From positions 320,640 to 384,639 of the forward strand of contig JBOEGD010000007.1 in assembly GCA_050633245.1 (NCBI GenBank): DNA of 64,000 nt, read 5' to 3'. The notes under the pieces were generated by a model that searched no databases, had not been told where the DNA came from, and worked only from the letters and a program-made list of their open reading frames with translations. This DNA comes from Calditrichia bacterium (GTDB taxonomy: Bacteria > Calditrichota > Calditrichia > RBG-13-44-9 > J075). Below, in pieces: positions 36,613 to 45,850 of the stretch. Position 1 is the stretch's first letter. Every line of letters begins with the position of its first letter. A program made the position numbers and the translations under genes.

Positions 36613-37545
36613 ATGAGAAACGTTCAGCATAAGAAAGAAGCCTACTGGTTTTACCGGGTTTTGTCCATTTTTTACGATAAATACGTGAATCCCTTCTTCT
36701 GGACAGAAGGAATGCGCAACGAAGCACTGGCGCTTGGCGACTTTAACTCGCGCGAGTTAACGGTAGCTGATGTCGGTTCAGGTACCGGGTTTACCACTCA
36801 GGGCATTTCTAAATATGTAGATGCGTCAAACATCTCCTGCCTGGATCAAAGCCCCCACCAAATGGCATATGCCAAAGCACGTCCGGAGCTACAACAGTCG
36901 CATTTTCAGGTTGGAGACGCAGAAGATCTGCCATTTGAGACCGATCACTTCGATCGCTACGTTTCTGCCGGCAGTATTGAATACTGGCCTGAGCCACTTC
37001 GTGGAATAGCCGAGTCGTATCGTATAATCAAGCCGGACGGAAAAGCACTAATGATCGGTCCGCTACGCCCACGCAACTGGTTTGCCCGACTAATGGCCGA
37101 CACTTGGATGCTCTTTCCGGAGGAAGAAGAATATATAAAGTGGTATGAAGAGGCCGGATTTGTTGATATTAAAAAAGTGAACACTGCTCCGAAATGGGTG
37201 TTTAAAGAAAAGTATGCCGTTGCGTTGGTCGGCACTAAACCAAAAAGCGGCGATTCACCTGCGAACTTGCCAGAGAAAAAAATTGAAGATGTAGCCGCGA
37301 AGATGACCTTCAACAGACGCATCAGCTTCGTTTGGCATTTACTAATCGGCAATCTTGCCGGATTTATGTTTATCCCAATGGCAGTTGTCGGATATGCAAA
37401 CTATGGCCTTCGCAAACTATTCGGTCGTATTCCCGAGAAGAAAAAAGCAGTACTAAACGATCGGTTGACGGTTCACCAGCGTGTCAGTCTTGCAACCATC
37501 GTTTTAATGGCCGTTGCAGCGGCTTGGTTGGCGATGGCAGCCTAA
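36613..37545 (+). CDS. MPBQ/MSBQ methyltransferase, plant VTE3 type
   Basis: QHKKEAYWFYR.LS..YD, WTE.MR, DVG.GTGFTT, LDQSPHQ, GDAEDLPF, DRYVSAGSIEYWP, WMLFP.EEEYI.W, GDSP; matches recalled plant VTE3 motifs; C-terminal TM. Confidence 0.88.
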   Translation: MRNVQHKKEAYWFYRVLSIFYDKYVNPFFWTEGMRNEALALGDFNSRELTVADVGSGTGFTTQGISKYVDASNISCLDQSPHQMAYAKARPELQQSHFQVGDAEDLPFETDHFDRYVSAGSIEYWPEPLRGIAESYRIIKPDGKALMIGPLRPRNWFARLMADTWMLFPEEEEYIKWYEEAGFVDIKKVNTAPKWVFKEKYAVALVGTKPKSGDSPANLPEKKIEDVAAKMTFNRRISFVWHLLIGNLAGFMFIPMAVVGYANYGLRKLFGRIPEKKKAVLNDRLTVHQRVSLATIVLMAVAAAWLAMAA

Positions 37546-37567
37546 GGCAATGAGGCAATGAGGCAAT
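37545..37567 (+). repeat. (AGGCAATG)x3 tandem repeat
   Basis: Read directly. Confidence 0.8.
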
Positions 37568-37674
37568 TTACTTCCGCTCGCCCGTTCTCCCACTCACCCA
37601 CTCTGTTGTTTCTATGCTCTGTGTTCTGTTGTTAATTCATAAATAATCACTCATAATTCATCAATATAGATTTC

Positions 37675-38514
37675 ATGTCTGAACTTAAAGATAGAATCAA
37701 ACAATTTTACGATGCTTCTACCCCGCTCTGGGAACGCACCTGGGGAGAACATATGCATCACGGCTATTATGGTGCAGACGGCACAGCTAAAAAAGATCAT
37801 CAAGTTGCTCAGGTCGATCTGATTGAAGAGCTGCTTCGCTGGGGAGACATCGGATCGCCAAAAAAGATTCTGGATATCGGCTGTGGCGTGGGTGGAAGCA
37901 GTATTCATCTTGCACAAAAGTATTCTGCCTCAGCAGATGGCATGACGCTAAGCCCGGTGCAGGCGCAACGTGGAAATGCGCGGGCGAAAGAGCTTCATAT
38001 TCAAGATCGAGTAGCTATTCATGTAGCCGATGCACTGAAACCTCCGTTTGCCGATAACAGCTTCGATTTAGCTTGGTCCTGTGAAAGTGGTGAACACATG
38101 CCCGATAAACGCTTGTTCCTACGAGCGGCTTATAACAAGTTAAAACCAGGCGGCCATTTTCTTATGGCAACCTGGTGCCATCGCGTCGAGCCACCGGAGT
38201 TGACGAAGAAAGAACGCCGCTTTCTGCTGGACATGTGCGATGCCTATCATCTTCCCTATATAATCTCGAATCCGGAGTATGCGCGCCTCACCATAGAAGA
38301 AGGATTTGAGGACATCAGAACAGAAGATTGGACAAAAGCCGTAGCGCCTTTTTGGCCTGCTGTGGTAAAATCGGCACTCAGCGTAAACAGCCTAATCGGA
38401 CTCGCGAAAGCAGGTTGGCCGACAATTCGCGGTGCCCTTGCAATGCGTTACATGATGCGTGGTTATAAGTCTGGACTTATTCGCTTTGGCGTGCTGCGGG
38501 CGGTAAAGCCATGA
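37675..38514 (+). CDS. Gamma-tocopherol methyltransferase (VTE4-like)
   Basis: I..FYD.S..LWE..WGEHMHHGYYG, LDIGCGVGGS, TLSPVQ, ESGEHMPDK, ATWCHR, DWT..VAPFWPAV. Confidence 0.88.
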   Translation: MSELKDRIKQFYDASTPLWERTWGEHMHHGYYGADGTAKKDHQVAQVDLIEELLRWGDIGSPKKILDIGCGVGGSSIHLAQKYSASADGMTLSPVQAQRGNARAKELHIQDRVAIHVADALKPPFADNSFDLAWSCESGEHMPDKRLFLRAAYNKLKPGGHFLMATWCHRVEPPELTKKERRFLLDMCDAYHLPYIISNPEYARLTIEEGFEDIRTEDWTKAVAPFWPAVVKSALSVNSLIGLAKAGWPTIRGALAMRYMMRGYKSGLIRFGVLRAVKP

Positions 38515-39407
38515 ACTTTCTAAGCGCACTTTGGCAGTTCGCCCGCCCGCATACAATCGTTGGTACCACATTAAGCGTGAGCGGTTTATTCGTTATTGCA
38601 ATGGCACATGCCAATAGCGGTATTGTCTTATGGCAGGAGTGGTTGATTACCCTTGTCAGCTGCCTTGGAGCAAACGTCTATATCGTTGGCTTAAATCAAC
38701 TTACCGACATCGAGATTGATCGAATAAACAAGCCCAACTTACCACTGGCCTCTGGTGCGATGTCTGAACGCACCGGGTGGAGTGTCATTCTAATATGCCT
38801 GTTCATCTCGCTTCTTGGCGCCTTTATCGGTGGCTACTACCTTCTGCTTACCGTTTTGATAAGTCTTTTTATCGGGACCGCGTACTCGCTGCCACCCATT
38901 CGCCTGAAGCGATTTCACTTTTGGGCGGCGGCCTGCATTTTCACCGTTCGCGGCGTTATCGTAAACCTTTTTCTTTTTCTACACTTTCACTTTCTCTACA
39001 GCAACAACTCTATCATTCCACTTCATGTATGGATTTTAACGGCATTCGTTTTCGGTCTAAGCCTGGTTATTGCCTGGTTTAAAGACATTCCGGATATGGA
39101 AGGTGATAGTCGCTTTCGCATTATCACGCTTAGCCTGCGATTGGGTGCACAGCGCGTTTTTCAGCTTGGCCTCGGCTTGCTTACCGTTTGCTACCTTGGT
39201 ATGGCTCTCACTGGAGCTTTAGGGCTGCCCGGAGTAAACGATACCGTTCTGATCATCTCGCACCTGGCCCTGCTGGCCTCCGCATGGATTGTCGGCAGAA
39301 AAGTTGACCCGACTGATCAGCAGACCATTACCCGCTTCTATCTGTTTGTGTGGGTACTATTTTTCGCAGAGTACCTGGTTTTTCCATTGGCCTGTGTTTT
39401 GGAATAG
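38511..39407 (+). CDS. Homogentisate phytyl/prenyltransferase (VTE2/HPT, UbiA superfamily)
   Basis: F.RPHTIVGT, NVYIVGLNQLTDIEIDRINKP.LPLASG, YSLPP.RLKRF, KDIPDMEGD, FY.F.W.LF..EY; ATGA overlap with upstream gene. Confidence 0.9.
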   Translation: MNFLSALWQFARPHTIVGTTLSVSGLFVIAMAHANSGIVLWQEWLITLVSCLGANVYIVGLNQLTDIEIDRINKPNLPLASGAMSERTGWSVILICLFISLLGAFIGGYYLLLTVLISLFIGTAYSLPPIRLKRFHFWAAACIFTVRGVIVNLFLFLHFHFLYSNNSIIPLHVWILTAFVFGLSLVIAWFKDIPDMEGDSRFRIITLSLRLGAQRVFQLGLGLLTVCYLGMALTGALGLPGVNDTVLIISHLALLASAWIVGRKVDPTDQQTITRFYLFVWVLFFAEYLVFPLACVLE

Positions 39408-42712: not shown

Positions 42713-45700
42713 ATGCGATTCATTATCGGCCTATTTATTGTTACATCATTTGCTTTTGCACAAGGTAGCTCACAGAACGTCACGTTGAAGCGAACCTTTA
42801 CCAGTCATGAATTCGGTGGTATGGTCGCTTTCGGTGATTTTGTAGTTGCAGATGCACAAAATGAAGTTTACGGCGATGATTTGAAAGCTGCCCGCGGCTA
42901 TAAGGTTCATCCGTTGTCCAATGCATACGAGGTTAGCCCACGGATCTACTGGAGCGAGAGCAGCTGGTATGGCGCAATAGGGTATGTCGATAATAGTTTA
43001 TTTTATATTGCAAACTCGCGTATTCCCGGCTCAGAAACGACACTCGAAATTTTTACTGTCAGCGATAATGGTGTATCCTCTCTAGGGCGGAGCAATATTG
43101 GATCCTATGCATTCCCAGACTATATCGGAGCGGCCCCAGACCTAAATGCCCTTTTTCTGTCTAAGGGACAGACAACAATTTATGTATATGATATCACGAG
43201 CAGAACAAATCCGGTATATCTTGATTTAACAGTTCCAACGGGTAATCCAATTTATGAAACAACCACATATAATGGACACATTTTTTGCAGTACCACGAAC
43301 GGCATCGGTGTGTTCGAGATAAATCCAGCTGATCCAACACAGCTCACCGCTAAAACTCCAATTTCAATCACCGGAAGTCAACCTAAAATAGCCCGGGTAA
43401 ACGAAAAGCTCTATGTGGCATCACTGAATCAACTGAGGGTTTTCGACATATCCAACCCGGAGATGGTAGCATTAATCGGGTCATGGTCTTCATCGACATC
43501 AAACATTAATGATCTGGCTGTCAATGATGTGAACGAGCTTCTGCACGTTCAGCTTGGAAATCGTATAACCGTATTGGATGTTGCAGATCCGAATGCAATC
43601 AACGAGATAGGGCACTATCAATTTTCGACACCGCCATTTCAGATTGAAGCTTCCGGAGATGCTATTTATGCTCTTCATAACACGACGCTCAGTATATTGG
43701 AGTACACTGGCAATCAAGATGTCGTTCTTGCTCTGACTCCGACAAACCTTATCTTTGAGCAAATGGTTGGAGGAATCCCAATTAAAAAATCCGTTGTTAT
43801 TCGCAACAATGGAACCTCCCAGGCAGACATCCTCAGCTTGACAAGTTCATCTCAAACATTTTCTGTAAACGATACAACCCTAACGTTGAATCCTGGTGAG
43901 AGCGTGGTCAGAGAGGTGACATTTTATCCTGGACCATCGGTTAGCGGTCATACGGGACGGATAAATATCTATCACAACGGGGTTACATCTTCAGAGATTC
44001 TTCAATTACAAGCCCAAACCTTTCCAGACGAGTTTTCAATCTCTGTGTCTTCTCTCTGGTTAGAAGCTGCCCCAATCGGAGGATCTACCCAATCGTTCTT
44101 TTCTCTCTTTAACTCATCCTTGCAATATTCCATGCAGGTTGATAGCTATACACGAACTCATCCTTACTACTCTGGCCCATCTCTGTCAAATTATCCACTT
44201 GCTCCAAATGAAAATACGCTGCTTGACTTTACTTTTGCTCCGCTAACACCCGGTTATCACACTGATACTGTTACGGTACATTATCACGGGAAGACGAAAG
44301 CTATTCAAGTTACCGGGCATGCATATGGCCCATATGTTGAGCTTGCAACCGATACGCTGAAAATAGAGAGAACACAGCTTGGAAGCGTAGGGGAAAAAAC
44401 AGCCTTCCTGAAAAACACCGGTACGCAAGATGTAAACATAACGTTTATCGGGCAACCGGATGCACCTTTCAACGTTAGTTTGGACTCTATGAATATTCGT
44501 CCCGGAGACTCCCTGAGGATTCAGGTCAGCTTCTCCCCAACCCAAACAGGTTTTTATCATGATACTATGCTTCTCAGACATAATGCATTCACTTCTCCGA
44601 ACATTATTCATTTGACCGGCGAGGGTGTCTTTGGCAACGCGTCCAATATGGTATTGCTGGGCGGACGGGATACGCCCGGAAGTACGGAAGGGTTGACGCT
44701 GAACGATCGGATGGTTTTTTTAGCCGACAGCGGTAACGGTATTGTCGCGATGAACATAGCTGATCCACAAAACATTAGCGTAACCAGTGAGCTGCCGATT
44801 TTAGAGCGGTTACATCGAATTGAAACTATCGGCAACGTTGGTTACGCTGTAGCAGAAAACGGGTTCTTTTATACGCTAAACCTGGCAGACACTGCAGCAA
44901 TAGCACTGTATGACGATCTACCTCTTCCCGGCACGCCGAATGATATTGCACTACAGGGTCTATATGCGTACGTCTCTGCTGGCACTGAAGGTCTACGCAT
45001 CGTCAATATTGCTGATCCGGGCAATCCGTTTCAGCTTTCCTTTCTCAATTTACCTGGCTTTGCTTCCGGTGTAGCCGTTGAGGGTAATTATGCCTTCGTT
45101 GCATGCGGAGATAGCGGTTTGCAGGTAGTCGATGTTTCAAACCTGTTTAGTCCATTTGTAGCAGCAAGCTTGCCGGTCACCGGCAGCGCGAATGAGCTAC
45201 TTCTTGAGGGTGATCGTCTTTTTGTTTCGCTGACAAATGCAGGCGTGCAGGAAGTCAATGTAACTGACCCGCTGCAGCCACAGGCACAGCGTTTGATTGA
45301 TTCAGTTGGAGAATCTGTTGACCTCGCTACAAGCGGAGACACGCTTTATGTGGCCGCACTGGCAGACGGTGTGCGCGTTCACGATCTGTCGCAGAGCAAT
45401 GCCCCTGAGATCGCCTTCTACGAACTACCCGGAGACGTCTACTCAATTGAAGCTCGCTCAGACACTGTTTACGTGGCTGCCGGTAATTCCGGGCTCTTCG
45501 TATTACGCTTAGGTGTTGGGCCTGTCGGAACCGGAGAAGAGACACCGATAACAATCAACCAATTTGCATTACAGCAGAATTATCCGAATCCGTTCAATCC
45601 GGAAACGCGCATTACCTTCGACCTGCCGCAGCGCAGTAATGTTGAGCTGATCGTGTATGATTTACTGGGAAGAGAAGTTCAGACGCTAAAAAGCGAATCC

Positions 45701-45850
45701 CTTCCTGCCGGACACCATCAGGCAACCTGGAACGGACGCGACAACTCCGGCAAGCCACAAAGCAGCGGAGTGTATGTCTATCAGCTACAGTATGAAACGG
45801 CCGATGGTCAGCGGGGCATGCTTAGCGAGAAGATGATCATGATCAAATGA
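42713..45850 (+). CDS. Secreted protein: two LVIVD-repeat propellers flanking three ASH/choice-of-anchor-D-like Ig domains, plus CTD
   Basis: GL.IV(N/D)I.DP..P and YAYV repeats, I.N.GT..L Ig motifs, NYPNPFNP tail. Confidence 0.8.
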   Translation: MRFIIGLFIVTSFAFAQGSSQNVTLKRTFTSHEFGGMVAFGDFVVADAQNEVYGDDLKAARGYKVHPLSNAYEVSPRIYWSESSWYGAIGYVDNSLFYIANSRIPGSETTLEIFTVSDNGVSSLGRSNIGSYAFPDYIGAAPDLNALFLSKGQTTIYVYDITSRTNPVYLDLTVPTGNPIYETTTYNGHIFCSTTNGIGVFEINPADPTQLTAKTPISITGSQPKIARVNEKLYVASLNQLRVFDISNPEMVALIGSWSSSTSNINDLAVNDVNELLHVQLGNRITVLDVADPNAINEIGHYQFSTPPFQIEASGDAIYALHNTTLSILEYTGNQDVVLALTPTNLIFEQMVGGIPIKKSVVIRNNGTSQADILSLTSSSQTFSVNDTTLTLNPGESVVREVTFYPGPSVSGHTGRINIYHNGVTSSEILQLQAQTFPDEFSISVSSLWLEAAPIGGSTQSFFSLFNSSLQYSMQVDSYTRTHPYYSGPSLSNYPLAPNENTLLDFTFAPLTPGYHTDTVTVHYHGKTKAIQVTGHAYGPYVELATDTLKIERTQLGSVGEKTAFLKNTGTQDVNITFIGQPDAPFNVSLDSMNIRPGDSLRIQVSFSPTQTGFYHDTMLLRHNAFTSPNIIHLTGEGVFGNASNMVLLGGRDTPGSTEGLTLNDRMVFLADSGNGIVAMNIADPQNISVTSELPILERLHRIETIGNVGYAVAENGFFYTLNLADTAAIALYDDLPLPGTPNDIALQGLYAYVSAGTEGLRIVNIADPGNPFQLSFLNLPGFASGVAVEGNYAFVACGDSGLQVVDVSNLFSPFVAASLPVTGSANELLLEGDRLFVSLTNAGVQEVNVTDPLQPQAQRLIDSVGESVDLATSGDTLYVAALADGVRVHDLSQSNAPEIAFYELPGDVYSIEARSDTVYVAAGNSGLFVLRLGVGPVGTGEETPITINQFALQQNYPNPFNPETRITFDLPQRSNVELIVYDLLGREVQTLKSESLPAGHHQATWNGRDNSGKPQSSGVYVYQLQYETADGQRGMLSEKMIMIK

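Follow-up and report, generated by a model that had tools for sequence, protein, structure and literature searches.

In Synechocystis, tocopherol synthesis is encoded by slr1736 (homogentisate phytyltransferase, HPT), slr0089 (gamma-tocopherol methyltransferase, TMT), slr1737 (cyclase), slr0090 (HPPD) and sll0418 (the methyltransferase acting on 2-methyl-6-prenyl-1,4-benzoquinol, MPBQ). The plastid pathway of plants and algae comprises VTE1-VTE4, HPPD, GGR and VTE5/6, and its plant genes are dispersed, nuclear and equipped with transit peptides. In plants, phytol released from chlorophyll is a major source of phytyl diphosphate (PMC9191347), and vitamin E is presented as a product of photosynthetic organisms alone in two reviews (PMC5745509, PMC9893489). 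Heterotrophic bacteria also encode 'tocopherol cyclase-like' proteins, whose function was left open and for which the sections of the report drawn on here describe no linkage to HPT or methyltransferase genes (PMC4963081). Here we describe three genes at positions 36613-39407 of a 64,000-nucleotide stretch of Calditrichota DNA (the window), whose products match VTE3, TMT (VTE4) and HPT (VTE2). We consider it reasonably probable that they are the central part of a tocochromanol pathway, complete with six genes, in a bacterium that is aerobic and not phototrophic.

The gene set resembles the cyanobacterial pathway in its predicted chemical logic, the joining of homogentisate to a C20 prenyl diphosphate, and in the sequences of HPT (48-56% identical) and TMT (48-58%). 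It departs from that pathway in having an MPBQ methyltransferase of the plant VTE3 type, a distant cyclase and a prenyl reductase that is not ChlP, in a host that lacks photosynthesis genes. The VTE3-type methyltransferase is in turn the likeness to the plastid pathway (50-53% identical to land-plant proteins), whereas plant proteins are longer at the N terminus by about 70-100 residues and the host, without a chlorophyll pathway, has relatives that cluster a reductase instead. As for the cyclase-like proteins of heterotrophs, the host cyclase belongs to the same broad PF14249 family and keeps the YxEK(N/D)WG and FPxxWxW.QxNxF region; unlike in the earlier description, a subset of the bacterial genes considered here clusters with a full tocopherol gene set and another subset with a MenA-like prenyltransferase. 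The set thus appears as a mosaic of cyanobacterial-like HPT and TMT, plant-type VTE3, a distant cyclase, and a reductase nearer to archaeal lipid reductases than to ChlP.

Database annotation pipelines already assign names to these genes in metagenome-assembled genomes (MAGs). Among the open-access papers and preprints of PubMed Central and bioRxiv, subscription journals lying outside this search, we found no description of tocopherols or tocopherol genes in Calditrichota, Saprospiraceae or other non-phototrophic bacteria.

Identity of the three clustered genes

The product of gene 3 scores 402.3 bits on the NCBIfam model NF009525 'homogentisate phytyltransferase' (an equivalog with a cut-off of 226), with residues 2-297 aligned to profile positions 12-309 of 310; the runner-up family reaches 67.5 bits, and Pfam UbiA is matched at 139.3 bits. 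Its translation holds RPHTIVGT and both Asp-rich motifs, NQLTDIEID and KDIPDMEGD, the general UbiA forms of which we take to be NQxxDxxxD and KDxxDxxGD. Close relatives are named 'homogentisate phytyltransferase' by NCBI in MAGs of several non-phototrophic phyla, and 'homogentisate phytyltransferase/homogentisate geranylgeranyltransferase' by JGI. In a tree that holds no plant HPT, HST or HGGT references, gene 3 falls within a 38-row non-cyanobacterial clade (support of 98 in the Shimodaira-Hasegawa-like approximate likelihood-ratio test, SH-aLRT) beside a 45-row cyanobacterial clade (98). Family membership supports gene 3 as a homogentisate phytyltransferase, predicted to use homogentisate and phytyl or geranylgeranyl diphosphate.

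Gene 1 encodes a class I methyltransferase (Pfam Methyltransf_11, 65.5 bits). Its land-plant VTE3 matches at 50-53% identity come from Riccia, Adiantum and Musa, with 52% to Rhododendron and 47% to Trifolium, the Musa sequence bearing the name '2-methyl-6-phytyl-1,4-hydroquinone methyltransferase 1, chloroplastic'. Among 1.84 billion representative proteins, the nearest full-length relatives beyond its own bacterial cluster are eukaryotic, 341-371 residues long and N-terminally extended; 79 proteins were retrieved at E <= 1e-30, many of those listed being short. JGI labels close bacterial relatives 'MPBQ/MSBQ methyltransferase', and in the VTE3 tree the bacterial and eukaryotic ingroup stands apart from four more distant methyltransferases (support 83/81). 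These relationships support gene 1 as a plant-type VTE3 MPBQ/MSBQ methyltransferase, predicted to methylate C3 of 2-methyl-6-prenyl-benzoquinol. From a reading of the sequence, the protein appears to end in a hydrophobic C-terminal tail.

Gene 2 matches Pfam Methyltransf_11 (67.6 bits) and CMAS (56.6 bits), passes no NCBIfam equivalog, contains WGEHMHHGYY and ESGEHMPDK, and is 55-58% identical to its cyanobacterial homologues. A Calothrix parasitica relative is called gamma-tocopherol methyltransferase by NCBI and many others 'tocopherol O-methyltransferase' by JGI, these names being annotation transfers; together, the data support an enzyme of the gamma-tocopherol-methyltransferase type. The initial annotation of the window had placed the three genes in the VTE3, VTE4 and VTE2 families, and these placements are borne out by the profile score of gene 3 and by the identities of genes 1 and 2 to their plant and cyanobacterial relatives. 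All the motifs on which it had relied can be read in the translations: the two named above for gene 2, and RPHT.VGT, NQxxDxxID and KDIPDxEGD for gene 3. The three family assignments lie far beyond chance, and the same gene order recurs in 28 of the 35 non-cyanobacterial loci described below.

Before the trees were built, seven duplicate loci (L085, L110-L114, L116) were removed, as were rows of the HPT and VTE3 trees below about 240-250 aligned residues. The final VTE3 tree includes the window's gene 1 and leaves out P0376, P0469, P0494 and P0496, which had long branches and whose placement inside Bacteroidota looked artefactual.

A chlorophyll-free host

The window corresponds to C7:320640-384639 of a 6.35-Mb genome in 59 contigs (completeness 97.1%, contamination 0.09%). 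The genome belongs to a Calditrichota family represented by 16 genomes in the set compared, in keeping with the Calditrichota-type chromosome surmised earlier. The initial annotation had also taken the host to be non-photosynthetic, and the whole-genome searches agree: Photo_RC and PsaA_PsaB gave no match in the host genome, the Synechococcus control being positive for both, and chlorophyll synthase was not found there (top match 89 bits versus a cut-off of 212). Two genes for haem-copper oxidase subunit I argue for an aerobic lifestyle, and three genes of the SQS/PSY family suggest that isoprenoid lipids are made; by its gene content, the host would be a heterotroph that lacks chlorophyll and lives aerobically, at least facultatively.

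The gene that follows the cluster, encoding 928 residues, is 55-58% identical to its counterparts in genomes of the same family, and the cluster genes are 56-62% identical to theirs. Since flanking gene and cluster are similarly distant from these relatives, the cluster probably belongs to this genome and was not brought in by mis-assembly, which speaks against the chimeric contig considered earlier. In a wider search, the flanking gene was met at only 9 loci of assorted phyla, at 34-50% identity, which gave no taxonomic signal.

Pathway genes outside the cluster

Besides the cluster, the initial annotation had proposed searching the genome for hppD, GGPP (geranylgeranyl diphosphate) synthase, geranylgeranyl reductase and tocopherol cyclase, and a candidate for each is present. 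HPPD lies about 260 kb upstream of the window on the same contig and scores 441 bits against a cut-off of 277, and two polyprenyl synthases are encoded in the genome. Two genes pass the geranylgeranyl-reductase model TIGR02032, one of which, on contig C11, is 64-68% identical to the reductase that adjoins the cluster in other genomes and is orthologous to it. This C11 reductase reaches 213.7 bits on the broad GG-red-SF model (cut-off 158.8), stays below the cut-off of the BchP-ChlP subfamily (120.8 versus 343.3 bits), and has archaeal lipid reductases as its top named matches, all of them below cut-off. It is unlinked to the cluster in the host.

A single gene of the cyclase family is present, with a PF14249 score of 75.8 bits against a gathering cut-off of 26.6; by its sequence the protein is a member of PF14249 and not an orthologue of VTE1. 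The region around YxEKNWG and FP..W.W.Q.N.F has been proposed as catalytic (PMC4963081), and in the host protein it reads GYIEKDWGRAFPSSYVWLQCNHF. Across 20 cyclases, 12 non-cyanobacterial and 8 cyanobacterial, 24 columns are invariant, including Y-x-E-K-x-W-G and F-P-x4-W-x3-N-x-F.

In Calditrichota, a cyclase-family gene occurs in 13 of the 14 genomes with TMT and HPT and in 13 of the 72 others, a comparison that is descriptive only, as related genomes are not independent. The TMT- and HPT-bearing genome in which no cyclase was found, G055, is 88% complete. In Bacteroidota, Rhodothermota and Latescibacterota, five further genomes with the cluster each hold a single cyclase gene, which is unlinked in four of the five; unlinked cyclases are thus normal among cluster-bearing genomes.

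Elsewhere in Calditrichota the cyclase keeps different company. In 11 of the 13 cyclase-bearing genomes without the cluster, it adjoins a MenA-like UbiA prenyltransferase (loci L120, L121, L122, L124, L125, L126, L127, L128, L129, L130 and L135, in genomes G072, G080, G082, G001, G002, G004, G026, G038, G039, G043 and G081). The prenyltransferase of this module, which was found in genomes without VTE3-TMT-HPT, is 310-343 residues long, and its top NCBIfam matches are 1,4-dihydroxy-2-naphthoate (DHNA) polyprenyl- and phytyl-transferases, all below cut-off; the module may build a chromanol-type ring on a different prenylquinol. Because the bacterial cyclase is paired with an aromatic prenyltransferase wherever a neighbour is visible, it would fit the cyclisation of a prenylated quinol. 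The MenA-like partner is missing from the host genome, where the top match is 24-32% identical, which leaves HPT as the only evident upstream enzyme for the host cyclase. The 11-row cyclase clade that contains the host protein has as its sister group (85/98) the cyclases of those Bacteroidota that bear the cluster, a position compatible with, though no proof of, an HPT-serving enzyme. Weak tblastn matches also place a cyclase within a few kb of HPT at the cyanobacterial loci L053, L054, L063 and L073; adjacency of HPT and cyclase thus appears to occur in some cyanobacteria too.

Conservation and distribution of the cluster

A scan with HPT, using one genome per species, yielded 464 relatives, the best 80 loci of which were compared. 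The HPT tree divides these into 45 loci of the cyanobacterial clade and 35 non-cyanobacterial loci, the latter comprising 22 from Bacteroidota (mostly Saprospiria) and 13 from Calditrichota, Rhodothermota, Latescibacterota, one further Bacteroidota genome and mislabelled bins. VTE3, TMT and HPT follow one another in the window's order at 28 of the 35, the remaining seven (L007, L038, L049, L055, L060, L076, L079) being partial or cut by a contig end. The reductase lies inside the 6-kb flank of the cluster at 22 of the 35 loci and near HPT at none of the 45 cyanobacterial-clade loci (E <= 1e-30). A cyclase is found inside the flank at nine non-cyanobacterial loci, directly upstream of VTE3 in eight of them. 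The fullest arrangement is that of L011 on a Latescibacterota chromosome, where reductase, HPPD, cyclase, VTE3, TMT and HPT are contiguous and co-oriented. The cultured Flavilitoribacter nigricans DSM 23189 has the order reductase-VTE3-TMT-HPT at L058 and a single cyclase gene at L150.

At the cyanobacterial-clade loci, no VTE3-type gene occurs within the flanks (0/45), nor was one found in any of five named cyanobacterial genomes, where the top match reaches 40 bits. A TMT-type gene lies near HPT at 23 of these 45 loci; the initial annotation, which had described the pathway genes of phototrophs as mostly dispersed, therefore needs amending for cyanobacteria.

Among 86 Calditrichota genomes, 18 have HPT over cut-off, 14 have TMT and 13 have VTE3 (the latter two at E <= 1e-40); TMT and HPT occur together in 14, and 13 of these also have VTE3. 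The window's own family accounts for 13 genomes with TMT and HPT out of 16, host included, and 12 of the 13 have VTE3, the contig of G058 coming to an end. The one further genome with both genes belongs to another Calditrichota family. In a sister family, HPT occurs without VTE3 or TMT in four genomes. At three HPT loci of this family (L107 in G073, L109 in G074, L118 in G081), the protein scores 378-405 bits, well above cut-off, and a putative methyltransferase of another kind, about 265 residues long, flanks HPT on the opposite strand; a LarC-like gene also adjoins HPT in two of the three.

In the order that holds Flavilitoribacter, 17 of 301 sampled genomes have HPT over cut-off, and the trait is therefore patchy. 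One Rhodothermota and one Bacteroidota sequence pair tightly in both the HPT and the VTE3 trees, suggesting that the genes of the cluster are transferred together from phylum to phylum. Two database records look mislabelled: that of 'Sericytochromatia' (L039, a 2.6-kb contig), with an HPT near-identical to that of Leptolyngbya L048, and that of 'Deltaproteobacteria bacterium PRO9' (L007), with an HPT identical to that of G058 in the window's Calditrichota family.

A proposed pathway and its alternatives

A candidate for each of the six steps is encoded in the host genome, and on this basis we propose the following route. HPPD would make homogentisate, and the C11 reductase would convert geranylgeranyl diphosphate to phytyl diphosphate, a step needed because an organism with no chlorophyll has no recycled phytol; this need would in turn explain why the reductase travels with the cluster. 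HPT would join homogentisate and phytyl diphosphate to give 2-methyl-6-phytyl-benzoquinol, to which the VTE3-type enzyme would add the second ring methyl. The cyclase-family protein would then close the chromanol ring, and the TMT-type enzyme would add the last methyl to yield alpha-tocopherol, perhaps together with gamma- and delta-forms. That the cluster leads to some homogentisate-derived, methylated prenyl-quinol or chromanol is in our judgement highly probable, and if a specific tocochromanol is to be named, it is probably alpha-tocopherol. In an aerobe, such a compound may serve as a chain-breaking lipid antioxidant of the membrane. A role in protecting polyunsaturated lipids was considered and set aside: no PfaD-family gene was found in the host, desaturases not having been searched for.

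Several observations weigh against a complete tocopherol pathway, most of them centred on ring closure. The PF14249 match of the host cyclase spans only profile positions 131-335 of 335, and the protein is only 22-29% identical to the cyclases of five out of five cyanobacterial genomes, over the C-terminal half only; a very long branch of several changes per site separates host-type from cyanobacterial cyclases. Its gene lies on C11, unlinked to the cluster on C7, and its family is large and spread over many heterotrophic bacterial phyla. Within its 11-row clade (99/96) the host protein is the earliest branch, nine of the ten others being partnered by a MenA-like enzyme and the tenth lying at a contig end. 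As for the other steps, the C11 reductase is not a ChlP orthologue (67.4 bits versus a cut-off of 505.3), and no curated model tells gene 2 apart from the paralogous cyanobacterial MPBQ methyltransferase of the Sll0418 type. HPT alone does not imply tocopherol, given the four sister-family genomes that have it without VTE3 or TMT. HPPD looks catabolic, as it adjoins a gene of 386 codons with a weak match to homogentisate 1,2-dioxygenase (60 bits versus a cut-off of 511), which may be the divergent dioxygenase of a tyrosine-degradation pair; HPPD probably serves tyrosine breakdown too, yet would still supply homogentisate.

An alternative end product would be an uncyclised di- or trimethyl-phytylbenzoquinone or a plastoquinone-like compound with a long tail, acting as redox carrier or antioxidant while the host cyclase serves another pathway. 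Plant VTE3 is also used in plastoquinone synthesis, the host cyclase is unlinked and most members of its clade are partnered by a MenA-like enzyme, and HPT occurs without a detected cyclase in the Calditrichota genomes G073, G074 and G084; G055, which has the cluster and no detected cyclase, may be counted here as well, but is incomplete. We nevertheless judge such a product unlikely. The cyclase stands directly upstream of VTE3-TMT-HPT at eight related loci and nearby at a ninth, and is present in 13 of the 14 cluster genomes of the phylum and in all five examined elsewhere. In the host, which lacks the MenA-like partner, HPT is the only evident prenyltransferase that could precede it. A reductase in the cluster would suit a C20 phytyl tail and not a long polyprenyl one, and chromanols are the substrates of the enzymes after which relatives of gene 2 are named. 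If the ring is closed but the tail left unsaturated, the products would be tocotrienols or similar chromanols and the reductase-family enzyme would act on other lipids. The affinities of that enzyme, with archaeal lipid reductases as its best named matches (below cut-off) and no orthology to ChlP, its unlinked position in the host, and the JGI name of the HPT relatives, which includes geranylgeranyltransferase, would fit this outcome. We hold it to be distinctly unlikely, as a reductase in the flank at 22 of 35 related loci versus none of 45 cyanobacterial ones would be difficult to account for if it had no part in the pathway, and the host retains an orthologue 64-68% identical to the clustered enzyme.

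There is, in our view, only a slim chance that the prenyltransferase takes an acceptor other than homogentisate and that the cluster makes an unrelated methylated meroterpenoid. UbiA enzymes switch acceptor easily, and the non-cyanobacterial HPTs form a clade of their own, apart from the proven cyanobacterial lineage; gene 3, however, lies far above the equivalog cut-off of NF009525 and is 50-56% identical to cyanobacterial HPT, L011 has HPPD directly joined to the cluster, and the other four enzymes all correspond to the tocopherol route. A chimeric contig, or a bin contaminated by a cyanobacterium or alga, might be suspected in a 59-contig assembly. Family-wide conservation, with TMT and HPT in 13 of 16 genomes, and the 55-58% identity of the flanking gene to same-family genomes make such an artefact very unlikely, to the point of being negligible; the contig bearing the cluster is at least 385 kb long, its G+C content is even across the window, contamination is estimated at 0.09%, HPT lies outside the cyanobacterial clade, and a VTE3-type gene was not found in the five cyanobacterial genomes searched. 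A tocochromanol made by the six-gene pathway, resident in the Calditrichota host, is thus the reading that we favour.

Evolutionary and practical implications

In the HPT tree, the non-cyanobacterial proteins are grouped in a clade adjacent to the cyanobacterial one and not nested in it, which argues against a recent transfer from a cyanobacterium. Eukaryotic VTE3 proteins form one clade (96/92) within an unresolved polytomy that also holds the bacterial lineages; a nesting of the eukaryotic proteins inside the bacterial ones finds no support in this tree, whose forks do not resolve. It is conceivable, if rather doubtful, that vitamin E synthesis is an old, self-contained operon of aerobic heterotrophs of the Fibrobacteres-Chlorobi-Bacteroidetes (FCB) group (Calditrichota, Saprospiria and other Bacteroidota, Rhodothermota and Latescibacterota) instead of a by-product of oxygenic photosynthesis, and that this operon or its ancestor gave photosynthetic eukaryotes the VTE3 that cyanobacteria lack. 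In this scenario, such bacteria would be an unrecognised environmental source of tocopherol, and sedimentary biomarkers of the chroman or pristane type might also come from them.

A complete, operon-organised gene set in non-phototrophs would overturn the view that vitamin E belongs to photosynthesis alone. If confirmed, the pathway would (i) provide a compact bacterial cassette for vitamin E production in the six contiguous genes of L011, (ii) raise the matter of the function of a chromanol antioxidant in an aerobe that lacks chlorophyll, and (iii) be relevant to where the VTE3 gene of plants comes from.

Layout of the cluster and its surroundings

The list of open reading frames (ORFs) with translations gives three co-oriented ORFs at the cluster, and the layout described in the initial annotation, including an ATGA overlap between the last two, is confirmed (Table 1); this overlap suggests that genes 2 and 3 are translationally coupled.

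Table 1 Coordinates of the cluster and of other features discussed (positions in the window unless a contig or locus is given)
Feature	Position	Strand	Length or remark
VTE3-type MPBQ/MSBQ (2-methyl-6-prenyl-1,4-benzoquinol) C-methyltransferase, gene 1	36613-37545	+	310 aa
Spacer between genes 1 and 2	37546-37674		129 nt
Gamma-tocopherol methyltransferase (VTE4 / tocopherol O-methyltransferase)-type enzyme, gene 2	37675-38514	+	279 aa
ATGA overlap, gene 3 start on gene 2 stop	38511-38514	+	read in sequence
Homogentisate phytyl/prenyltransferase (VTE2/HPT type), UbiA superfamily, gene 3	38511-39407	+	298 aa
Sigma-70-like match in the gene 1/2 spacer	37629-37657		
ORF with T9SS-like C-terminal end	42713-45850	+	1045 aa
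HPPD	C7:59716-60780		
Locus L002, HPPD and the gene beside it	C7:59716-61872		neighbour 386 aa
Geranylgeranyl-reductase-family flavoprotein	C11:49863-51008		
Cyclase-family gene	C11:105634-106734	-	
Gene with confirmed T9SS sorting domain	L091:3061-3615		

Upstream, a 206-residue ORF ends 66 nt before gene 1, and further upstream, on the opposite strand, lies a 762-residue ORF that is helicase-like as judged from its sequence; downstream, the 928-residue ORF begins 259 nt after gene 3. These neighbours, with functions read from sequence, appear unrelated to the cluster. G+C content ranges from 0.42 to 0.51 in 2-kb windows and is 0.47-0.48 at the cluster. The region has a single sigma-70-like match, in the spacer that follows gene 1, and as 5.7 were expected from shuffles it does not indicate a promoter; a terminator scan of the region gave no signal, with 6 terminator-like sites against 4.2 expected. 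Further downstream in the window, a 1045-residue ORF has a C-terminal end that, on inspection, resembles a sorting tail of the type IX secretion system (T9SS), and a T9SS sorting domain is confirmed for one other gene of the genome.

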